From a virus (taxonomy: Duplodnaviria; Heunggongvirae; Uroviricota; Caudoviricetes), in the IMG/VR virus record IMGVR_UViG_2850790056_000002: a stretch of DNA of 17,312 nucleotides; one strand, 5' to 3'. Made by a program: the position numbers and the translations under genes. This document shows, in pieces, positions 3,248-16,760 of this stretch (the first letter of the stretch is position 1; every line of letters begins with the position of its first letter). A model generated the notes under the pieces. That model ran no database searches, had not been told where the DNA came from, and saw nothing but the letters and a program-made list of their open reading frames with translations.

Positions 3248-3622
3248 ATGCTCATAGATTTGGTTTTACCTTACCCGCCGACGGTGAACACTTACTGGCG
3301 ACGCCGTGGCAGCACATATTTTATCTCGGAGGAGGGAAAGCGTTATCGCCGGGCTGTGGCGCTTATTGTTCGCCAGCAGCGGCTGAAATTAAGCCTGTCC
3401 GGAAGGCTGGCGATAAAGGTGATTGCAGAGCCACCGGATAAGCGTCGTCGCGACCTGGACAATATCCTGAAAGCACCGCTGGATGCGCTGACGCATGCGG
3501 GAGTGTTAATGGACGATGAGCAGTTTGATGAAATCAATATCGTTCGTGGTCAGCCAGTATCTGGTGGACGTCTGGGGGTGAAGATTTACCCCATAATGCA
3601 TGAAGAGCAGGTCAAAAAATGA
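3248..3622 (+). CDS. rusA: RusA-family Holliday junction resolvase
   Basis: 124-aa ORF with PDKRRRDLDN...DAL...DD...GGRL motifs characteristic of RusA; RBS aagagg upstream. Confidence 0.85.
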   Translation: MLIDLVLPYPPTVNTYWRRRGSTYFISEEGKRYRRAVALIVRQQRLKLSLSGRLAIKVIAEPPDKRRRDLDNILKAPLDALTHAGVLMDDEQFDEINIVRGQPVSGGRLGVKIYPIMHEEQVKK

Positions 3623-4440
3623 AACTGGAAGATTTACCGAAATACTACTCCCCAAAATCCCCTTGCCTGACCGATGCATCGGCCTCAACGTCAAAAGATG
3701 CGCTGAGTATCACTGATGTGATGGCCGCGCAGGGCATGACACAGAATCGGGCTGAGATGGGGTTTTCTGCGTTCCTGGGGAAAATGGGCATCAGTATGAA
3801 TGACAGGGCGCGGGAAACAGAATTACTGGCAGATTATGCACTCAGTCGGTGCGATCGTGTGGCGGCGTTGAGAAAACTTCCGGCAGAAATAAAACCGTTA
3901 GTGATGCGCATTATGGCTTCGTACGCTTTTGAGGATTATGCCCGCAGCGCAGCGAGTAAAAAGCAGTGCCCTTGTTGCTATGGGGAAAAATTTATTGAAA
4001 GCGTAGTTTTTGCAAACAAGGTCCAGTATCCGGATGGTAAGCCGCCGGTATGGGCAAAGTGTACGAAAGGTGTGTATCCGTCTTACTGGGAAGAATGGAA
4101 AAAAGTCAGGGAGGTGGTAAAAGTTGCCTGTCCGGAGTGTGGCGGAAAGGGTGAGGTTTCCACCGCCTGTAAGGATTGCCGTGGGCGTGGTGTCGCCATT
4201 CACCGTGAAGAGTCGGTAAAACGTGGTATGTCTGTTATCAGAGACTGCCAGCGTTGTGGTGGTCGTGGCTATGAAAGACTACCATCAACGGAGGCATTTA
4301 ATGCTATATGCGAGGTGACAAACCAGATAACACGCGCGTCATGGGAAAAAACAGTTAAGAAATTCTATGATGCGCTGGTGACCCGGTTTGATATTGAAGA
4401 AGCATGGGCTGAGCGGCAGTTAAAAAAGGTAACTAGGTAA
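3619..4440 (+). CDS. late-gene antiterminator Q-like protein (zinc-finger type, QuuQ/Q82-like)
   Basis: 273-aa ORF starting in an ATGA overlap with the rusA stop; three CxxCxGxG zinc-finger repeats; located immediately upstream of a promoter-like element and tRNA genes as in lambdoid/Stx phages. Confidence 0.6.
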   Translation: MKLEDLPKYYSPKSPCLTDASASTSKDALSITDVMAAQGMTQNRAEMGFSAFLGKMGISMNDRARETELLADYALSRCDRVAALRKLPAEIKPLVMRIMASYAFEDYARSAASKKQCPCCYGEKFIESVVFANKVQYPDGKPPVWAKCTKGVYPSYWEEWKKVREVVKVACPECGGKGEVSTACKDCRGRGVAIHREESVKRGMSVIRDCQRCGGRGYERLPSTEAFNAICEVTNQITRASWEKTVKKFYDALVTRFDIEEAWAERQLKKVTR

Positions 4441-4473: not shown

Positions 4474-4583
4474 CGTCATAACGATGGGCTTTTTATGCCT
4501 GACGTTAGAAGAGTTTCTACAACCCGCCGCCGAGCAGGTTTTTTATTGCGGAATTAATTACGGACCGTTATTATTCTGCTCCC

Positions 4584-4659
4584 GGCCCTTTAGCTCAGTG
4601 GTGAGAGCGAGCGACTCATAATCGCCAGGTCGCTGGTTCAAATCCAGCAAGGGCCACCA
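4584..4659 (+). tRNA. tRNA with CAU anticodon (Met or lysidine-type Ile2, ileZ-like as in Stx phages)
   Basis: 76-nt cloverleaf folded by hand: acceptor ggccctt/aagggcc, D-arm gctc/gagc, anticodon loop ctCATaa, T-arm gctgg-ttcaaat-ccagc, discriminator A plus encoded CCA. Confidence 0.85.
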
Positions 4660-4757
4660 TCACAAACCGCCATTAGCTTATCAGGAAGAGCAGACGACAC
4701 GATAACAGGGTTGTTGGTGCGGGGCGGGCCCCGATGGCGGTCCATTATCGGTATTCA

Positions 4758-4834
4758 GCGTTGTTAGCTCAGCCGGACAGAGCAATTGCCTTCTAAGCAA
4801 TCGGTCACTGGTTCGAATCCAGTACAGCGCGCCA
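4758..4834 (+). tRNA. tRNA-Arg (UCU anticodon, argN/argO-like)
   Basis: 77-nt cloverleaf: acceptor gcgttgt/acagcgc, D-arm gctc/gagc, perfect anticodon stem attgc/gcaat with loop ctTCTaa, T-arm actgg-ttcgaat-ccagt, encoded CCA. Confidence 0.85.
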
Positions 4835-4925
4835 TATTCATTCTGCCAGATTCCTTCCGGCAGAGCCTTAGGTGATGCTGCCAACTTACTGATTTAGTGT
4901 ATGATGGTGTTTTTGAGGTGCTCCA

Positions 4926-5201
4926 GTGGCTTCTGTTTCTATCAGCTGTCCCTCCTGTTCAGCTACTGACGGGGTGGTGCGTAACGGCAAAAGCACTGCC
5001 GGACATCAGCGCTATCTCTGCTCTCACTGCCGTAAAACATGGCAACTGCAGTTCACTTACACCGCTTCTCAACCCGGTACGCACCAGAAAATCATTGATA
5101 TGGCCATGAATGGCGTTGGATGCCGGGCAACTGCACGCATTATGGGCGTTAGCCTCAACACGATTTTACGTCACTTAAAAAACTCAGGCCGCAGTCGGTA
5201 A
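4926..5201 (+). CDS. insA: IS1 InsA
   Basis: 91-aa ORF matching classical IS1 InsA ([22 protein letters not shown]...). Confidence 0.95.
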
Positions 5202-5245
5202 CCTCGCGCATACAGCCGGGCAGTGACGTCATCGTCTGCGCGGAA

Positions 5246-5623
5246 ATGGACGAACAGTGGGGATACGTCGGGGCTAAATCGCGCCAGCGCTGGCTGTTTT
5301 ACGCGTATGACAGGCTCCGGAAGACGGTTGTTGCGCACGTATTCGGTGAACGCACTATGGCGACGCTGGGGCGTCTTATGAGCCTGCTGTCACCCTTTGA
5401 CGTGGTGATATGGATGACGGATGGCTGGCCGCTGTATGAATCCCGCCTGAAGGGAAAGCTGCACGTAATCAGCAAGCGATATACGCAGCGAATTGAGCGG
5501 CATAACCTGAATCTGGGGCAGCACCTGGCACGGCTGGGACGGAAGTCGCTGTCGTTCTCAAAATCGGTGGAGCTGCATGACAAAGTCATCGGGCATTATC
5601 TGAACATAAAACACTATCAATAA
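5246..5623 (+). CDS. insB: IS1 InsB frame (InsAB' transposase by -1 frameshift)
   Basis: ORF in -1 frame relative to insA ending 15 bp inside the right end; matches classical IS1 InsB. Confidence 0.9.
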
Positions 5624-5747
5624 GTTAGAGTCATTACCGAGCCTTATACTGAAATATACCTGGCTCAGGATATTGTTGAAAATATTATATGTTTGTCAAA
5701 AATAAAAGTTCTGTTAAGTATTGATTGAGTGTTTGTTATACGGTCTA

Positions 5748-6074
5748 ATGGTTTTTTCAGCATTAAATATTTATCATTCATATGGTGTGGGTAGAGTGAA
5801 TATTGATGAGGCGTCGGGGTGTTTCATCCTTAGGCAGCGTATTGATATAGTCAATGCAGCACGAGCAAAGGCCTTCAGCCGTTTGACAGTTTTGTTCTGT
5901 ACTCCTGATCGTCTTTCGGGAAGAGACGTTATTATTCTGAATAGTGATGCTATACAGAGGGTTTGCGATGAGTTCATGGTTGCTAATTCAGAATTATTTG
6001 CTCTTGTTCAGGAGTACAACAGAATAGCCAGGACCTGTGGTATGGATGAACTTCGGGGTGATGCCTCTAATTAG
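5748..6074 (+). CDS. hypothetical protein in AT-rich cargo segment; last 5 codons and stop supplied by the inserted IS1 (native C-terminus ...ELRITHLG replaced by ...ELRGDASN)
   Basis: Open frame from TTG 5721 / ATG 5748; IS1 copy B inserted at 6056/6057 with 8-bp TSD; joining the flanks restores an ORF ending at the tag now at 6846-6848; start codon uncertain. Confidence 0.4.
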   Translation: MVFSALNIYHSYGVGRVNIDEASGCFILRQRIDIVNAARAKAFSRLTVLFCTPDRLSGRDVIILNSDAIQRVCDEFMVANSELFALVQEYNRIARTCGMDELRGDASN

Positions 6075-6113
6075 TTGAATCTGATGTATAATGCGGGCTT
6101 TTGAGGTTCTTTC

Positions 6114-6386
6114 ATGGCCAGCGTTAACATTCATTGTCCTCGTTGTCAGTCTGCACAGGTCTACCGCCATGGTCAGAACCCTAAAGGCCATGACAGATTT
6201 CGCTGCCGTGACTGCCACCGCGTTTTTCAGCTCACTTACACTTATGAGGCCCGTAAGCCGGGCATTAAAGAGCTGATCACTGAAATGGCCTTCAATGGCG
6301 CCGGGGTTCGCGATACCGCCAGGACACTGAAAATTGGCATTAACACCGTCATCCGGACTTTAAAAAACTCACGCCAAAGCGAATAA
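6114..6386 (+). CDS. insA: IS1-family InsA (divergent type)
   Basis: Identical protein to ORF 1-273. Confidence 0.9.
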   Translation: MASVNIHCPRCQSAQVYRHGQNPKGHDRFRCRDCHRVFQLTYTYEARKPGIKELITEMAFNGAGVRDTARTLKIGINTVIRTLKNSRQSE

Positions 6387-6412
6387 CGTCTTCGCCCGTT
6401 GCTCATGCTGAT

Positions 6413-6808
6413 GTGGCGCTTATCTGCGAACTTGATGAGCAATGGAGTTTCGTTGGCAGTAAAGCCCGGCAACACTGGCTCTGGTACGCGTATAACACCA
6501 AAACAGGGGGGGTACTGGCCTACACTTTTGGTCCCCGTACCGATGAAACCTGCCGGGAACTACTGGCATTGCTTACGCCATTCAACATCGGCATGATCAC
6601 CAGCGACGACTGGGGCAGCTATGGCCGGGAGGTGCCGAAGGATAAGCATCTGACCGGAAAAATATTCACCCAACGGATTGAGCGCAATAACCTGACGCTG
6701 CGCACCCGCATTAAGCGCTTGGCTCGTAAAACAATCTGCTTCTCGCGTTCAGTAGAGATCCACGAAAAAGTCATCGGGACGTTTATTGAAAAACACATGT
6801 TCTACTAA
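6413..6808 (+). CDS. insB: IS1-family InsB frame (divergent type)
   Basis: Same as ORF 300-695 with one substitution (R to Q). Confidence 0.85.
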   Translation: MALICELDEQWSFVGSKARQHWLWYAYNTKTGGVLAYTFGPRTDETCRELLALLTPFNIGMITSDDWGSYGREVPKDKHLTGKIFTQRIERNNLTLRTRIKRLARKTICFSRSVEIHEKVIGTFIEKHMFY

Positions 6809-7184
6809 TTGGAAGCATCACCAACTTCGGATTACTCATCTGGGGTAGATACATATCTGGATTATCACCTGTTACGGTATAAAGTGATTGCTTACTGTTT
6901 TTGTGAATGGCATTGCAGCAGCCGGATAATGTCAGTGTTGGCTGACGGTGTGCTGGTGGCGGGTGTGGTGGTTGTTGCTTTCCCGTTGCTGAAAAAGAAA
7001 ACGCCAGACTGTTAGCCGGGTATCAGTTAGCGGGAGAAATTTTTAAATACTTCACAATTCAGGCGGTTGACTGTTGTCTGGTTTGCGGGGAGTTTGTTAA
7101 AAGAAACTGGCATGGTGAATTGAGGTAGCCTGAGTTTAACGGACACTCCTTCCTGAAATAGAATGGCATCAGAAGGAGCTAATA

Positions 7185-7487
7185 ATGAGCAGAAAAACCC
7201 AACGTTACTCTAAAGAGTTCAAAGCCGAAGCTGTCAGAACGGTTCTTGAAAATCAACTTTCGATCAGTGAAGGCGCTTCCCGATTATCCCTTCCTGAAGG
7301 CACTTTAGGACAATGGGTTACCGCCGCCAGAAAAGGGCTCGGTACTCCTGGTTCCCGCACGGTGGCTGAACTGGAATCTGAAATTCTGCAACTGCGTAAG
7401 GCGTTAAATGAAGCTCGCCTTGAGCGAGATATATTAAAAAAAGCAACAGCGTATTTTGCACAGGAGTCGCTGAAAAATACGCGTTAA
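7185..7487 (+). CDS. IS600 OrfA (HTH transposase N-terminal protein)
   Basis: 100-aa [21 protein letters not shown]... typical of IS3-family OrfA with leucine-zipper C-terminus. Confidence 0.9.
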   Translation: MSRKTQRYSKEFKAEAVRTVLENQLSISEGASRLSLPEGTLGQWVTAARKGLGTPGSRTVAELESEILQLRKALNEARLERDILKKATAYFAQESLKNTR

Positions 7488-7522
7488 TCGAACAATGGCG
7501 ACAACAATTTCCCATTGAAGCG

Positions 7523-8341
7523 ATGTGTCAGGTATTTGGTGTATCCAGGAGCGGTTATTACAACTGGGTACAGCATGAACCCTCAGACAGAAAACAAAGT
7601 GATGAGCGGCTAAAACTGGAGATTAAGGTGGCACATATCCGCACTCGCGAAACATATGGAACCCGGCGGCTCCAGACGGAGCTGGCAGAGAATGGCATCA
7701 TCGTTGGTCGTGACCGACTGGCACGTCTTCGTAAGGAGCTAAGGCTACGCTGTAAGCAGAAACGCAAGTTCAGAGCGACTACGAACTCGAACCACAATCT
7801 GCCAGTTGCGCCAAATCTGCTGAACCAGACGTTCGCTCCTACAGCACCAAATCAGGTCTGGGTGGCGGACCTGACGTATGTTGCCACACAGGAGGGATGG
7901 TTGTACCTCGCTGGCATCAAAGATGTTTATACGTGCGAAATTGTCGGCTACGCCATGGGAGAGCGCATGACAAAAGAGCTGACAGGTAAAGCCCTGTTTA
8001 TGGCGCTCAGGAGCCAGCGCCCACCTGCCGGGCTAATCCACCACTCTGATCGAGGTTCACAGTACTGCGCATACGATTACCGGGTCATACAGGAGCAGTT
8101 TGGTCTGAAAACATCAATGTCGCGTAAAGGTAACTGTTACGACAACGCTCCGATGGAAAGCTTCTGGGGAACGCTGAAAAATGAGAGCCTGAGCCACTAT
8201 CGTTTTAATAACCGGGATGAAGCCATCTCAGTAATACGGGAATACATTGAGATTTTCTACAATCGTCAGCGTCGTCACTCTCGTCTGGGGAATATCTCCC
8301 CGGCAGCCTTCAGGGAAAAATATCATCAGATGGCTGCTTAG
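7523..8341 (+). CDS. IS600 OrfB (DDE transposase catalytic domain; normally made as OrfAB fusion by -1 frameshift)
   Basis: 272-aa ORF in -1 frame relative to orfA with DDE-type motifs (WVADLTY..., HSDRGSQY..., NAPMESFWGTLK); stop tag at 8339-8341. Confidence 0.9.
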   Translation: MCQVFGVSRSGYYNWVQHEPSDRKQSDERLKLEIKVAHIRTRETYGTRRLQTELAENGIIVGRDRLARLRKELRLRCKQKRKFRATTNSNHNLPVAPNLLNQTFAPTAPNQVWVADLTYVATQEGWLYLAGIKDVYTCEIVGYAMGERMTKELTGKALFMALRSQRPPAGLIHHSDRGSQYCAYDYRVIQEQFGLKTSMSRKGNCYDNAPMESFWGTLKNESLSHYRFNNRDEAISVIREYIEIFYNRQRRHSRLGNISPAAFREKYHQMAA

Positions 8342-8507
8342 AAAAAGAACAAATGGTAGTGTCCGCTATTGCCAGTACACCTCAAATCCCCCTGTGCGGA
8401 GGGGCAATCAGCGAGTAGGTATATGGGATAATCGCGGATTCAGGTGCTGGTACTGAATTCACCGGGAGGCACCCGGCACCATGCAATGGCACATAGCGCC
8501 ACTCTCC

Positions 8508-8535
8508 AGCCCCTCTCCGGAGGGGCTGTTTATAT
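8508..8535 (+). terminator. candidate rho-independent terminator
   Basis: 8-bp GC-rich stem agcccctc/gaggggct with tccg loop (8508-8527) followed by gtttatattgatttt. Confidence 0.4.
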
Positions 8536-8560
8536 TGATTTTGTCAGATGTGAGTAAACT

Positions 8561-8592
8561 CCTTATGGACTTTGTTGTTTTAGTCCATAAGG
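8561..8592. repeat. perfect 11-bp inverted repeat with 10-nt T-rich spacer
   Basis: ccttatggact (8561-8571) and agtccataagg (8582-8592) are exact reverse complements. Confidence 0.7.
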
Positions 8593-8734
8593 ACATATTT
8601 GCAGAGTGCAACGGTTATTAAAGCATTCATTCAATACGTTATCTGTATTTGTAGGGCATTCCTGGCTGTTTTTGATTAAATTCCAGAATGTTTTATTGAA
8701 TGGTACTACGTTGTAAATGGGGTGATGCTTCCAA

Positions 8735-9145
8735 TTAGTAGAACATGTGTTTTTCAATAAACGTCCCGATGACTTTTTCGTGGATCTCTACTGAACGCGA
8801 GAAGCAGATTGTTTTACGAGCCAAGCGCTTAATGCGGGTGCGCAGCGTCAGGTTATTGCGCTCAATCCGTTGGGTGAATATTTTTCCGGTCAGATGCTTA
8901 TCCTTCGGCACCTCCCGGCCATAGCTGCCCCAGTCGTCGCTGGTGATCATGCCGATGTTGAATGGCGTAAGCAGTGCCAGTAGTTCCCGGCAGGTTTCAT
9001 CGGTACGGGGACCAAAAGTGTAGGCCAGTCCCCCCCCCTGTTTTGGTGTTATACGCGTACCAGAGCCAGTGTTGCCGGGCTTTACTGCCAACGAAACTCC
9101 ATTGCTCATCAAGTTCGCAGATAAGCGCCACATCAGCATGAGCAA
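8735..9145 (-). pseudogene. insB: IS1-family insB with +1 frameshift in a homopolymer tract (9 C on the plus strand at 9030-9038, versus G7 then T in copies A and B)
   Basis: ORF-track protein fuses an out-of-frame N-terminus (MLMLMW...TPKQGG) to the InsB frame (GLAYTFGPRTDETC...); ORF is 411 nt versus 410 nt for the equivalent span in copy B. Confidence 0.7.
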
Positions 9146-9157
9146 CGGGCGAAGACG

Positions 9158-9430
9158 TTATTCGCTTTGGCGTGAGTTTTTTAAAGTCCGGATGACGGTG
9201 TTAATGCCAATTTTCAGTGTCCTGGCGGTATCGCGAACCCCGGCGCCATTGAAGGCCATTTCAGTGATCAGCTCTTTAATGCCCGGCTTACGGGCCTCAT
9301 AAGTGTAAGTGAGCTGAAAAACGCGGTGGCAGTCACGGCAGCGAAATCTGTCATGGCCTTTAGGGTTCTGACCATGGCGGTAGACCTGTGCAGACTGACA
9401 ACGAGGACAATGAATGTTAACGCTGGCCAT
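9158..9430 (-). CDS. insA: IS1-family InsA (divergent type)
   Basis: Protein identical to ORFs 1-273 and 6114-6386. Confidence 0.9.
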   Translation of the reverse strand: MASVNIHCPRCQSAQVYRHGQNPKGHDRFRCRDCHRVFQLTYTYEARKPGIKELITEMAFNGAGVRDTARTLKIGINTVIRTLKNSRQSE

Positions 9431-9515
9431 GAAAGAACCTCAAAAGCCCGCATTATACATCAGATTCAACTAATTAGAGGCATCACCAGTTATTTTTCAG
9501 ATGGTGGAAAGAACC

Positions 9516-9743
9516 ATGGCATTTAAACACTATGATGTTGTCAGGGCGGCGCCGCCGTCAGATCTTGCGGAAAAGCTGACACATAAACTGAAAGAGGGCT
9601 GGCAGCTGTTTGGTAGTCCGGTGGCCATAACCCCTTATACCCTGATGCAGGCGATTGCAGCAGAAGGTGATGTGGTGGTCAGTGGTGCAATTGAGCCGGA
9701 GTGGTACTACGTCATCGTATTGGCCCGGCATTCCAGGCCATAA
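9516..9743 (+). CDS. small late-region prophage protein of unknown function (possibly DUF1737-like)
   Basis: ATG at 9516 with GGAAAG RBS (ORF-track frame opens at 9501); lies upstream of the holin gene in the late region; family name is a tentative recollection. Confidence 0.35.
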   Translation: MAFKHYDVVRAAPPSDLAEKLTHKLKEGWQLFGSPVAITPYTLMQAIAAEGDVVVSGAIEPEWYYVIVLARHSRP

Positions 9744-10100
9744 AAGACAGTCTGGCAGTGGGACTAAATGCACTGACGCTGACGGATATTACCAAAAATG
9801 CAACGTATGGCGTTGAGATAGAAAGTCTGGTGCTGGAGATAAATGCACCGGCATCATCATAAAAAGTGAGCCAGTCAAACGGAAGGTATCGTTAAACTCA
9901 CCGGTAGTGTCAGTGGGTCGTCTGAGACGCTTGCATTAGTTATCAGAGCCATCAGTAGTTAACTGGTGGCTTTGTTATTGTTGTCAGCTTCCGGATAACG
10001 GGAGACGGGTAGACTGGCCCCCTGAATCTCCAGACAACCAGTATCACTTAAATAAGTGATAGTCTTAATACTAGTTTTTAGACTAGTCATTGGAGAACAG

Positions 10101-10466
10101 ATGATTGATGTCTTAGGGCCGGAGAAACGCAGACGGCGTACCACACAGGAAAAGATCGCAATTGTTCAGCAGAGCTTTGAACCGGGGATGACGGTCTCCC
10201 TCGTTGCCCGGCAACATGGTGTAGCAGCCAGCCAGTTATTTCTCTGGCGTAAGCAATACCAGGAAGGAAGTCTTACTGCTGTGGCCGCCGGAGAACAGGT
10301 TGTTCCTGCCTCTGAACTTGCTGCCGCCATGAAGCAGATTAAAGAACTCCAGCGCCTGCTCGGCAAGAAAACGATGGAAAATGAACTCCTCAAAGAAGCC
10401 GTTGAATATGGACGGGCAAAAAAGTGGATAGCGCACGCGCCCTTATTGCCCGGGGATGGGGAGTAA
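10101..10466 (+). CDS. insC: IS2 InsC (OrfA)
   Basis: 121-aa product [24 protein letters not shown]... ; the ORF-track frame opens upstream at 10056. Confidence 0.9.
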
Positions 10467-11329
10467 GCTTAGTCAGCCGTTGTCTCCGGGTGTCGCGTGC
10501 GCAGTTGCACGTCATTCTCAGACGAACCGATGACTGGATGGATGGCCGCCGCAGTCGTCACACTGATGATACGGATGTGCTTCTCCGTATACACCATGTT
10601 ATCGGAGAGCTGCCCACGTATGGTTATCGTCGGGTATGGGCGCTGCTTCGCAGACAGGCAGAACTTGATGGTATGCCTGCGATCAATGCCAAACGTATTT
10701 ACCGGATCATGCGCCAGAATGCGCTGTTGCTTGAGCGAAAACCTGCTGTACCGCCATCGAAACGGGCACATACAGGCAGAGTGGCCGTGAAAGAAAGCAA
10801 TCAGCGATGGTGCTCTGACGGGTTCGAGTTCTGCTGTGATAACGGAGAGAGACTGCGTGTCACGTTCGCGCTGGACTGCTGTGATCGTGAGGCACTGCAC
10901 TGGGCGGTGACTACCGGCGACTTCAACAGTGAAACAGTACAGGACGTCATGCTGGGAGCGGTGGAACGCCGCTTCGGCAACGATCTTCCGTCGTCTCCAG
11001 TGGAGTGGCTGACGGATAATGGTTCATGCTACCGGGCTAATGAAACACGCCAGTTCGCCCGGATGTTGGGACTTGAACCGAAGAACACGGCGGTGCGGAG
11101 TCCGGAGAGTAACGGAATAGCAGAGAGCTTCGTGAAAACGATAAAGCGTGATTACATCAGTATCATGCCCAAACCAGACGGGTTAACGGCAGCAAAGAAC
11201 CTTGCAGAGGCGTTCGAGCATTATAACGAATGGCATCCGCATAGTGCGCTGGGTTATCGCTCGTCACGGGAATATCTGCGGCAGCGGGCTTGTAATGGGT
11301 TAAGTGATAACAGATGTCTGGAAATATAG
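10424..11329 (+). CDS. insD: IS2 InsD (OrfB, DDE transposase)
   Basis: 301-aa ORF overlapping insC in a different frame; DDE-type motifs. Confidence 0.9.
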
Positions 11330-11347
11330 GGGCAAATCCAACGGGGT

Positions 11348-11563
11348 ATGGACCAGATGGAAAAAATCACAACAGGTGTGTCATACACCACGTCAGCGGT
11401 GGGAACGGGCTACTGGTTCCTGCAGTTGCTGGACAGGGTTTCCCCGTCTCAGTGGGCGGCAATAGGCGTGCTGGGGAGTCTGCTGTTTGGGCTGCTGACA
11501 TATCTGACTAACCTGTATTTCAAAATCAGAGAGGACCGTCGTAAGGCGGCACGGGGAGAGTAA
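11348..11563 (+). CDS. class II holin / pinholin (phage 21 S-like, EssD-like) with dual-start motif
   Basis: 71-aa product ...[50 protein letters not shown] closely matches S21/EssD as recalled; two in-frame Met codons (M1, M4). Confidence 0.8.
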
Positions 11564-11567
11564 TTCA

Positions 11568-11753
11568 ATGACTCAAAACTATGAACTGGTTGTGAAAGGG
11601 ATCCGCAATTTTGAGAATAAGGTTACGGTAACTTTAGCATTACAGGACAAAGAACGCTTTGACGGTGAAATTTTTGACCTGGACATCTCGCTGGACCGTG
11701 TTGAAGGTGCCGCGCTGGAGTTTTATGAGGCAGCGGCCAGAAGGAGCATCTGA
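11568..11753 (+). pseudogene. YdfR-like (DUF1327-like) lysis-cassette gene, 3'-truncated by IS600
   Basis: ORF begins 5 nt after the holin stop; its stop codon tga (11751-11753) is the first three bases of the IS600 terminal repeat; family assignment from recollection of Qin gene order essQ-ydfR-rrrQ. Confidence 0.45.
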
Positions 11754-12187
11754 GGTGTACTGGCAATAGCGAACACTACCATTTGTTCTTTTTTTAAGCA
11801 GCCATCTGATGATATTTTTCCCTGAAGGCTGCCGGGGAGATATTCCCCAGACGAGAGTGACGACGCTGACGATTGTAGAAAATCTCAATGTATTCCCGTA
11901 TTACTGAGATGGCTTCATCCCGGTTATTAAAACGATAGTGGCTCAGGCTCTCATTTTTCAGCGTTCCCCAGAAGCTTTCCATCGGAGCGTTGTCGTAACA
12001 GTTACCTTTACGCGACATTGATGTTTTCAGACCAAACTGCTCCTGTATGACCCGGTAATCGTATGCGCAGTACTGTGAACCTCGATCAGAGTGGTGGATT
12101 AGTCCGGCAGGTGGGCGCTGGCTCCTGAGCGCCATAAACAGGGCTTTACCTGTCAGCTCTTTTGTCATGCGCTCTCCCATGGCGTAG
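11751..12187 (-). mobile_element. IS600 fragment (copy 2): 3'-terminal ~437 bp including the right inverted repeat, inverted orientation
   Basis: Plus strand reads tgaggtgtactggcaatagcgaacactacc... (IS600 right end, reverse complement); homology ends at 12187 where the IS911 terminus begins. Confidence 0.85.
11794..12187 (-). pseudogene. IS600 orfB, C-terminal fragment
   Basis: 128-aa ORF identical to the C-terminal part of OrfB from copy 1; terminates with taa rather than tag. Confidence 0.85.
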
Positions 12188-14338
<2,151 letters not shown>

Positions 14339-14532
14339 AGTCTGATGTCTTTATCACCGTCAGCTTTTCCCTGATACGCAGCAATAATCAGCCCGCCAAT
14401 GTCAGGGTCTCCCCATCTGTTGCGGACAGAGCTCGCCGCGATTCTGTAAATAATATCTTCTGCGGTTATATTTATTTTCACCCAGTCAGTCAGAAATCCA
14501 GATAAGAGCCGGTAGCAGGCGTGATAAATGGG
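14339..14532 (-). other. 194-bp orphan coding fragment between two IS600 copies, open on the minus strand (remnant of a deleted gene)
   Basis: One minus-strand frame has no stop across the whole segment (...TDWVKINITAEDIIYRIAASSVRNRWGDPDIGGLIIAAYQGKADGDKDIR...); family not recognised. Confidence 0.35.
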
Positions 14533-14596
14533 TGAGGTAGCCTGAGTTTAACGGACACTCCTTCCTGAAATAGAATGGCATCAGAAGGAGCTAATA

Positions 14597-14899
14597 ATGA
14601 GCAGAAAAACCCAACGTTACTCTAAAGAGTTCAAAGCCGAAGCTGTCAGAACGGTTCTTGAAAATCAACTTTCGATCAGTGAAGGCGCTTCCCGATTATC
14701 CCTTCCTGAAGGCCCTTTAGGACAATGGGTTACCGCCGCCAGAAAAGGGCTCGGTACTCCTGGTTCCCGCACGGTGGCTGAACTGGAATCTGAAATTCTG
14801 CAACTGCGTAAGGCGTTAAATGAAGCTCGCCTTGAGCGAGATATATTAAAAAAAGCAACAGCGTATTTTGCACAGGAGTCGCTGAAAAATACGCGTTAA
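14597..14899 (+). CDS. IS600 OrfA
   Basis: 100-aa ORF, one substitution (T to P) relative to copy 1. Confidence 0.85.
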   Translation: MSRKTQRYSKEFKAEAVRTVLENQLSISEGASRLSLPEGPLGQWVTAARKGLGTPGSRTVAELESEILQLRKALNEARLERDILKKATAYFAQESLKNTR

Positions 14900-14934
14900 T
14901 CGAACAATGGCGACAACAATTTCCCATTGAAGCG

Positions 14935-15254
14935 ATGTGTCAGGTATTTGGTGTATCCAGGAGCGGTTATTACAACTGGGTACAGCATGAACCCTCAGAC
15001 AGAAAACAAAGTGATGAGCGACTAAAACTGGAGATTAAGGTGGCACATATCCGCACTCGCGAAACATATGGAACCCGGCGGCTCCAGACGGAGCTGGCAG
15101 AGAATGGCATCATCGTTGGTCGTGACCGACTGGCACGTCTTCGTAAGGAGCTAAGGCTACGCTGTAAGCAGAAACGCAAGTTCAGAGCGACTACGAACTC
15201 GAACCACAATCTGCCAGTTGCGCCAAATCTGCTGAACCAGACGTTCGCTCCTAC
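14935..15254 (+). pseudogene. IS600 orfB, truncated after ~106 codons by the adjacent IS600 copy
   Basis: ORF-track 14935-15267 ends ...NQTFAPTEVA; the last codons derive from the terminal repeat of copy 5. Confidence 0.85.
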
Positions 15255-16520
15255 TGAGGTAGCCTGAGTTTAACGGACACTCCTTCCTGAAATAGAATGG
15301 CATCAGAAGGAGCTAATAATGAGCAGAAAAACCCAACGTTACTCTAAAGAGTTCAAAGCCGAAGCTGTCAGAACGGTTCTTGAAAATCAACTTTCGATCA
15401 GTGAAGGCGCTTCCCGATTATCCCTTCCTGAAGGCACTTTAGGACAATGGGTTACCGCCGCCAGAAAAGGGCTCGGTACTCCTGGTTCCCGCACGGTGGC
15501 TGAACTGGAATCTGAAATTCTGCAACTGCGTAAGGCGTTAAATGAAGCTCGCCTTGAGCGAGATATATTAAAAAAAGCAACAGCGTATTTTGCACAGGAG
15601 TCGCTGAAAAATACGCGTTAATCGAACAATGGCGACAACAATTTCCCATTGAAGCGATGTGTCAGGTATTTGGTGTATCCAGGAGCGGTTATTACAACTG
15701 GGTACAGCATAAACCCTCAGACAGAAAACAAAGTGATGAGCGACTAAAACTGGAGATTAAGGTGGCACATATCCGCACTCGCGAAACATATGGAACCCGG
15801 CGGCTCCAGACGGAGCTGGCAGAGAATGGCATCATCGTTGGTCGTGACCGACTGGCACGTCTTCGTAAGGAGCTAAGGCTACGCTGTAAGCAGAAACGCA
15901 AGTTCAGAGCGACTACGAACTCGAACCACAATCTGCCAGTTGCGCCAAATCTGCTGAACCAGACGTTCGCTCCTACAGCACCAAATCAGGTCTGGGTGGC
16001 GGACCTGACGTATGTTGCCACACAGGAGGGATGGTTGTACCTCGCTGGCATCAAAGATGTTTATACGTGCGAAATTGTCGGCTACGCCATGGGAGAGCGC
16101 ATGACAAAAGAGCTGACAGGTAAAGCCCTGTTTATGGCGCTCAGGAGCCAGCGCCCACCTGCCGGGCTAATCCACCACTCTGATCGAGGTTCACAGTACT
16201 GCGCATACGATTACCGGGTCATACAGGAGCAGTTTGGTCTGAAAACATCAATGTCGCGTAAAGGTAACTGTTACGACAACGCTCCGATGGAAAGCTTCTG
16301 GGGAACGCTGAAAAATGAGAGCCTGAGCCACTATCGTTTTAATAACCGGGATGAAGCCATCTCAGTAATACGGGAATACATTGAGATTTTCTACAATCGT
16401 CAGCGTCGTCACTCTCGTCTGGGGAATATCTCCCCGGCAGCCTTCAGGGAAAAATATCATCAGATGGCTGTGCTTAAAAAAAGAACAAATGGTAGTGTCC
16501 GCTATTGCCAGTACACCTCA
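15255..16520 (+). mobile_element. IS600 copy 5, full length (1266 bp; same 2-bp-insertion variant as copy 3), no flanking direct repeat
   Basis: Both terminal repeats present; flanks tac versus act do not match; gctgtgctt at 16467-16475. Confidence 0.9.
15319..15621 (+). CDS. IS600 OrfA
   Basis: 100-aa ORF identical to copy 1 OrfA. Confidence 0.9.
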   Translation: MSRKTQRYSKEFKAEAVRTVLENQLSISEGASRLSLPEGTLGQWVTAARKGLGTPGSRTVAELESEILQLRKALNEARLERDILKKATAYFAQESLKNTR

Positions 16521-16760
16521 ACTTGTCAGGGGGCGGTCATACAGAGGCTCACGACTGGGACCGGTGGGGATTTCAGCGCCCTGTACTCCCACCGGAACGC
16601 ATATAGTATACCCACAATATTTCATTACGGGATGTTCAGAGCATTCATTACCGGGGTCATATCGCGCCCTGTCCGGGGTGCCGGATACATATGTCTCTGG
16701 CGCAATGCTTGGGCTTTTTATTCGCACATCGTGAGGAATGGAATGCACCGTGGAAATTAA
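15657..16760 (+). CDS. IS600 OrfB with 95-codon read-through extension into flanking DNA
   Basis: Same 2-bp insertion as copy 3; 367-aa ORF runs to 16760, well past the IS end at 16520. Confidence 0.8.
   Translation: MCQVFGVSRSGYYNWVQHKPSDRKQSDERLKLEIKVAHIRTRETYGTRRLQTELAENGIIVGRDRLARLRKELRLRCKQKRKFRATTNSNHNLPVAPNLLNQTFAPTAPNQVWVADLTYVATQEGWLYLAGIKDVYTCEIVGYAMGERMTKELTGKALFMALRSQRPPAGLIHHSDRGSQYCAYDYRVIQEQFGLKTSMSRKGNCYDNAPMESFWGTLKNESLSHYRFNNRDEAISVIREYIEIFYNRQRRHSRLGNISPAAFREKYHQMAVLKKRTNGSVRYCQYTSTCQGAVIQRLTTGTGGDFSALYSHRNAYSIPTIFHYGMFRAFITGVISRPVRGAGYICLWRNAWAFYSHIVRNGMHRGN
16522..16734 (+). pseudogene. 3' remnant (about 70 codons) of a gene interrupted by IS600 copy 5; possibly a phage gene, unassigned
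   Basis: Open frame from the IS600 junction to tga at 16732-16734, 3 nt before the next gene's RBS-supported start; no 5' part in the window. Confidence 0.3.

Follow-up and report, generated by a model that had tools for sequence, protein, structure and literature searches.

What does a lambdoid prophage carry between its antiterminator gene Q and its lysis genes when the cargo is not a toxin, and what becomes of that cargo once insertion sequence (IS) elements begin to accumulate? The question is raised by positions 5639-8720 of IMG/VR virus record IMGVR_UViG_2850790056_000002 (the window, by which we mean the whole stretch of 17,312 nucleotides that was analysed). The original prediction, made from the DNA letters alone, had described this region as an AT-rich unknown cargo gene, fragmented by three IS insertions, in the slot where Shiga toxin (Stx) phages carry stxAB. 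We propose that 5639-8720 is very probably an IS-shattered copy of a widespread accessory (moron) cassette of E. coli and Shigella prophages, lying between Q and its adjoining tRNA genes on one side and the lysis genes on the other; the identification of the cassette by itself is near certain. As judged by sequence identity, it is the same cassette as that of the potB-island prophage of Escherichia coli CFT073: the window cassette aligns collinearly with its counterparts in E. coli 042 and CFT073, and it is 99-100% identical to CFT073 and many other strains. The elements and genes of the interval are as follows.

4871-5638, plus strand: IS1 copy A, with the 8-bp target duplication GAGCCTTA at 4863-4870 and 5639-5646; junctions read directly
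5796-6074, plus strand: orf92, GTG start, 92 residues; native to 6056, with the last five codons and the stop (6057-6074) supplied by the end of IS1N
6057-6822, plus strand: IS1N copy B, with the 8-bp target duplication AACTTCGG at 6049-6056 and 6823-6830
6831-6848, plus strand: displaced native 3' end of orf92, ATT ACT CAT CTG GGG TAG, encoding ITHLG and the stop
6884-7015, plus strand: DUF3927 gene encoding a hydrophobic protein of 43 residues; PF13064, 95.6 bits, E=1.7e-27
7081-7120, plus strand: 5' piece of the small RNA (sRNA) STnc100, its first 40 nucleotides, severed by IS600
7121-8384, plus strand: IS600 (IS3 family), with the 3-bp target duplication AAT at 7118-7120 and 8385-8387
8388-8537, plus strand: 3' piece of STnc100, 150 nucleotides with a Rho-independent terminator; Rfam RF02076, 79.3 bits
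8563-8720, minus strand: 3' end of iraL, its final 51 codons with the stop; 100% identical to CFT073 iraL
8721-9487, minus strand: IS1N copy C, inverted relative to copy B, without a target duplication and adjoining a 412-bp deletion

How was the intact cassette taken apart? IS1 copy A, IS1N copy B and IS600 each have terminal inverted repeats and a target duplication, and their insertion sites are empty in the collinear genomes of 042 and CFT073; these three behave as simple insertions. The three insertions of the original prediction, together with their target duplications and junctions, are therefore real. IS1N and IS600 were named by BLAST against annotated plasmids, in which the IS1N found here is 99.9% identical to copies in Shigella dysenteriae plasmids. 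Judged by these two IS types, the window probably comes from a genome of the Shigella dysenteriae type; an exact search of genome_contigs for the junction of IS1N with orf92 gave no match. What the prediction overlooked is IS1N copy C, which is 99.6% identical to copy B and is the exception to simple insertion, having no duplication and a deletion alongside. The alignment to CFT073 ends at copy C and restarts 412 bp farther along CFT073; the 412 bp next to this copy are present in both CFT073 and 042 and are gone from the window. The missing duplication and the missing 412 bp together suggest that the loss beside copy C came about by IS1-mediated adjacent deletion or by recombination between IS copies. 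The count for the region is four IS events plus a deletion, rather than three insertions.

In-silico excision of the IS elements leaves a segment of 1041 bp with a guanine-plus-cytosine (GC) content of 42%, against 50% for the whole window, in agreement with the AT-rich segment of about 1 kb that had been predicted; its leader (5639-5795, 157 bp) has only 29% GC. A search for an uninterrupted allele, which the original prediction had put forward as a check, found this segment at 99.5% identity and without interruption in 869 of 5426 complete E. coli genomes, CFT073 and 042 among them, and these copies validate the reconstruction. In 042 and CFT073 the left part of the locus reads DUF968, RusA, antiterminator Q, tRNAs and about 500 bp of unannotated DNA; the right part holds the 43-residue DUF3927 protein on the plus strand, followed on the minus strand by a spurious pseudo-coding sequence and an "anti-adapter protein IraM"; and the locus ends with a DUF1737 remnant and the genes for holin, lysozyme and spanin. 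The same order in both strains bears out the predicted slot, in which Q and the tRNAs are followed by a moron and then by the holin. Read from these alignments, the intact layout is tRNAs, orf92 (plus), the DUF3927 membrane peptide (plus), STnc100 (plus), the convergent iraL (minus), DUF1737 and holin. In the window the tail of orf92 has been swapped, STnc100 has been split, and iraL has lost its 5' half and its promoter; DUF3927 alone is untouched. In addition, IS1 copy A now lies between the cassette on one side and the tRNAs, Q and the late promoter region on the other. Among the open reading frames (ORFs) of the IS-free segment, all of which are accounted for, there is no Shiga toxin A- or B-subunit reading frame, as the original prediction had also held. 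Its view of the slot as occupied simply by an unknown cargo gene does not survive, since iraL and STnc100, both of which it missed, had already been described there; the cassette has been sequenced hundreds of times, and iraL and STnc100 are its main functional cargo.

What has been lost with iraL? IraL is an RssB-binding anti-adaptor that protects sigma-S from ClpXP, as found by experiments in CFT073 and Shigella sonnei (PMC4045071); it stabilises sigma-S in log phase in both, and its gene belongs to the potB-island prophage (Hryckowian et al. 2014, PMC4045071). Window positions 8385-8720 are 100% identical to positions 3549-3884 of the CFT073 locus (L013), whose iraL product is WP_000871291. 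The window fragment covers positions 62-113 of the NCBIfam model NF007393 (IraM subfamily), the full-length members of which have about 107-111 residues, and at 60.6 bits it falls below the curated cutoff of 121 bits, which the intact 042/CFT073 protein clears with 162 bits. The window iraL is a truncated pseudogene remnant of a true IraM/IraL member. The 412-bp deletion took its codons 1-60, its 5' untranslated region and its promoter; the sequence of the transcription start mapped in PMC4045071 can be located in CFT073 but is absent from the window. With promoter, transcription start and codons 1-60 all gone, this copy cannot give rise to an anti-adaptor. A factor that stabilises RpoS, and that has been reported as enriched and functional in Shigella, is lost from this locus, which makes it one more case of IS-driven regulatory loss. 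The perfect 11-bp inverted repeat of the original prediction also belongs to this gene: it is real, but it lies one base away from where it had been placed, at 8560-8570 and 8583-8593, where it takes in the final codons of iraL together with the stop. STnc100 and iraL are convergent, with about 25 nucleotides from the sRNA terminator to the iraL stop codon, and an iraL transcript running beyond its 3' hairpin would be antisense to the STnc100 terminator.

Similarly, STnc100 can be followed from an intact to a broken state. With IS600 removed, the window sequence is identical at 190 of 190 positions, by coordinate mapping, to the intact copy of the 042 locus (L001, 9669-9858), which scores 132.4 bits over the full RF02076 model; both this copy and the 3' piece in the window lie above the gathering threshold of 47 bits. 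IS600 inserted between nucleotides 40 and 41, so that the transcription unit is no longer contiguous. The hairpin at 8508-8535, which had been put forward as a candidate terminator, is indeed a terminator, but it is that of the STnc100 sRNA (RF02076), and a terminator scan of the intact locus finds that hairpin and T-run have been kept. In Stx2 phages, copies of STnc100, a prophage-borne sRNA related to PasD, are reported to lie 75 nucleotides downstream of stx2 (PMC12370729; bioRxiv 10.64898/2026.05.13.724894), and these copies mark the STnc100 family as a regular occupant of the slot between Q and holin. We note that on the minus strand, wholly inside STnc100, RefSeq records a pseudogene labelled as a partial "hypothetical protein" (L001 9688-9813, L013 3531-3656; in the window about 7100-7120 plus 8388-8492), which is probably an annotation artefact. 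Two prophages with a diverged orf92 allele beside an AraC-family regulator carry two STnc100-family copies each, L003 at 1344-1556 and 4650-4839 and L007 at 4569-4764 and 4829-4935, which suggests duplication or modular shuffling of STnc100 within the Q–holin interval. The neighbouring DUF3927 gene escaped damage: its 43-residue translation is identical to the 042 protein WP_000562553.1, it scores above the Pfam gathering score of 25 bits for PF13064, and it also matches the TciB-like phrog_1470. The ORF of 28 codons (6930-7016) that had been taken for a separate hydrophobic peptide is the C-terminal two-thirds of this gene.

Is orf92, the remaining component, a gene at all? Judging from its pattern of substitutions, orf92 is a real protein-coding gene under clear purifying selection. 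Three alleles with 68-72% nucleotide identity are all 279 nucleotides long, have their GTG start and their stop in common, and contain no insertions or deletions. Third codon positions carry about double the differences of positions 1 and 2. The ratio of nonsynonymous to synonymous substitution rates (dN/dS) for the three alleles is 0.22-0.32 in the orf92 frame and about 0.9-1.2 in three of the five other frames; the antisense frame that shares the orf92 wobble positions also reaches 0.21, but it is interrupted by stop codons. Besides the window allele, the other two were recovered by protein searches, at about 57-63% amino-acid identity. Because two of the alleles have in-frame stops upstream of the GTG, the product is best modelled as 92 residues from GTG 5796 and not as a longer protein from ATG 5748. 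The same model is used by the NCBI Prokaryotic Genome Annotation Pipeline (PGAP), which annotates a 76%-identical allele of strain 0-4 as the 92-residue coding sequence WP_001017777. The predicted protein of about 110 residues is accordingly real, conserved and without a characterised family, but shorter than had been supposed. Its C-terminus in the window was called correctly: in-silico excision confirms that IS1N copy B changed ITHLG to GDASN while keeping the length, and 87 of the 92 residues are native. The replaced tail aligns with the conserved hydrophobic [IV]-x-[IV] segment at the C-terminus of the family. At an identity of at least 99%, orf92 is present in 1172 of the 5426 complete E. 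coli genomes, and RefSeq has no annotation at its position in 042, in CFT073 or in those of the 1172 genomes for which rows were listed. This makes orf92 a cheap candidate for small-protein validation and for better annotation.

To which family does orf92 belong? Its residues 1-92 match positions 17-108 of phrog_2873 (E=5.6e-58); phrog_4827, to which orf92 itself is only weakly similar, is the best match of its relatives in Serratia and Morganella. No match was found in Pfam (none at E<=10) or NCBIfam, and none at E<=1 to the PADLOC hidden Markov models (HMMs) of anti-phage defence for seven family members. Word-indexed and exhaustive HMM searches recovered homologues of 91-110 residues in Citrobacter, Serratia, Morganella and Xenorhabdus, all of them labelled "hypothetical"; the original prediction had expected a protein that matches no well-characterised family and has intact homologues in related prophages, and both expectations agree with what was found. 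Among the phages of the collection searched by tblastn, the ORF occurs in one record, the sequenced lambdoid phage mEp460_ev081, which carries the window's allele, also unannotated. The AlphaFold2 (AF2) model (predicted local distance difference test score 87.6, predicted template modelling score 0.74) places helices at residues 3-33 and 50-80, and the protein is predicted to be a soluble, mildly acidic, 10-kDa antiparallel two-helix hairpin. The family is conserved across prophages of Enterobacterales; its members occupy the interval from Q to holin, in many cases immediately behind phage tRNA genes, and are as a rule the first ORF to follow Q and the tRNAs. For example, a Serratia prophage has Q, three tRNAs, orf99 and holin, and locus L009 has Q, tRNA-Thr and orf95; a TerB-like gene and then a DUF3927 gene often come next after the orf92 relative. 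A plasmid branch also exists. Its member P0037 (91 residues, gene at 5001-5276), found on contigs of Rep3-type E. coli plasmids (L020-L022), lies beside a PapB/usher/chaperone fimbrial operon and about 580 bp downstream of a tRNA-Thr gene, and this locus looks like a transplanted fragment of the prophage tRNA–orf module.

What might orf92 do? We propose, as a tentative guess, that orf92 may be transcribed on the Q-dependent late transcript from pR' and that its product would act by binding another protein, as a coiled-coil adaptor and not as an enzyme; we regard the two parts together as possible. Late transcription is suggested by the orientation of the gene, its position and the absence of a convincing promoter of its own, and IS1 copy A would then uncouple orf92 from the late promoter in the window. 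Several observations weigh against this proposal. Structure searches with orf92 yield only generic coiled-coil hairpins, and no homology assigns a function. Late-operon expression is not universal in the family, because one branch lies on plasmids beside fimbrial operons. Promoter and terminator patterns in the orf92 unit do not exceed chance, the promoter scan giving no more sites than shuffled sequence. A more specific role is unlikely, namely that of a host-takeover or anti-defence factor, or of a modulator tied to the phage tRNAs or to a TerB/DUF3927 membrane module. If it were true, a widespread phage function, present in about one-fifth of E. coli genomes, would have been hidden by standard annotation pipelines.

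Other readings of these genes have to be weighed. That orf92 and DUF3927, with the TerB-like protein where it is present, form a membrane-stress, lysis-timing or toxin-antidote module is in our estimate decidedly unlikely. The two genes are 36 nucleotides apart on the same strand, and E. coli locus L010 and Citrobacter locus L017 share the order orf, TerB-like (phrog_632), DUF3927 (phrog_1470) and holin; however, in Serratia prophages, on plasmids and in E. coli strain 0-4 the family members have no DUF3927 neighbour, and the pairing is therefore not obligate. We give still less credence to a cassette that continues to function, in which the re-tailed orf92 and DUF3927 would be expressed from outward or hybrid IS1 promoters as an adaptive rewiring and not a decay. 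Such a reading could appeal to the full length of orf92 with its 87 native residues and to a DUF3927 identical to wild type, yet the swapped tail falls on the conserved [IV]-x-[IV] segment, STnc100 and iraL are clearly destroyed, and the window is saturated with IS copies, the neighbouring lysis region included. IS saturation is a typical pattern of prophage decay in Shigella. A kinship of orf92 with GapR (UPF0335/DUF2312), which would make it a small protein that binds DNA, is very improbable. The best matches of the family profile in the PDB are several GapR entries, at E=0.05-0.25, in alignments that cover some 46 residues of helix 1; the kinship was rejected as insignificant, with a best PDB profile E of 0.05 and no Pfam match at E<=10, and the top fold matches of the orf92 model do not include GapR. 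Finally, that the frame at 5748/5796-6074 is a fortuitous opening in AT-rich noncoding DNA after the tRNAs deserves hardly any weight, for although it would explain the missing RefSeq annotation, and although the noncoding flanks, too, keep about 70% conservation from allele to allele and the Shine-Dalgarno sequence of the window allele is weak, it is contradicted by the dN/dS pattern, by a length, start and stop kept exactly in three alleles of about 70% identity, by same-length homologues at 20-37% identity in other genera, by the PGAP annotation of WP_001017777 and by a confident AF2 fold.

The IS-shattered cassette is bordered on both sides by further features of the same prophage. Upstream, two tRNA genes precede IS1 copy A:

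4584-4659, plus strand: tRNA with CAT anticodon (ileZ-like); ARAGORN; Rfam tRNA, 72.5 bits
4758-4834, plus strand: tRNA-Arg with TCT anticodon; ARAGORN; Rfam, 68 bits

The first of these is identical to a gene of E. coli 042 that PGAP calls tRNA-Ile. The original prediction had named three tRNAs (ileZ/argN/argO); ARAGORN and Rfam find two, and neither detects a tRNA in the 98-nucleotide spacer at 4660-4757. CFT073 has three tightly packed tRNAs at this point (Ile, Arg and Arg), in a region that aligns at 91% with gaps, and the middle, argN-like tRNA appears to have been lost or replaced in the lineage of 042 and the window. Downstream, IS1N copy C is followed at 9488-10009 by the DUF1737-remnant region of the prophage. 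An IS2-like element of the IS3 family (10010-11340, with ORFs at 10103-10466 and 10424-11329) then sits between this region and a class II holin gene (11348-11563); its flanks are adjacent in 042 and CFT073, with a 5-base overlap that is probably a target duplication. The window also starts with a partial IS1N (1-709), and it contains four more IS600 copies, full or partial and some in tandem, at 11751-12187, 13071-14339, 14533-15254 and 15255-16521. The YdfR-like gene downstream of the holin is interrupted at about 11753, and the lysis region of the prophage has been essentially replaced by IS DNA.

How, then, does this cassette compare with known systems? The phrog_2873 family of PHROG, a family (like phrog_4827) of unknown function, matches orf92 over its full length; its profile has 108 positions because the upstream ATG is used, whereas the comparison made here favours 92 residues, and the window copy bears an IS-derived C-terminus. 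Likewise, the small protein matches DUF3927 (PF13064) and the TciB-like phrog_1470, in a family that is uncharacterised, and the locus differs from those of other prophages in lacking the TerB-like partner gene. Within the IraM/IraL/RssC family of anti-adaptors, the closest counterpart is CFT073 iraL, with which the window shares the same prophage context and 158 identical 3' nucleotides; here, in contrast, only the C-terminal 51 codons are kept and the promoter is gone. STnc100 (RF02076) fits its full model once the IS is removed, and its place within the Q–S interval, on the downstream side of the cargo, agrees with that in Stx2 phages, with the difference that the window copy is split 40 nucleotides in by IS600. 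Finally, the cassette occupies the stxAB moron slot of Stx phages, in that it lies at the corresponding point between Q with its tRNAs and the holin; where those phages carry a toxin gene, the cargo here is regulatory, consisting of iraL and an sRNA together with small ORFs.

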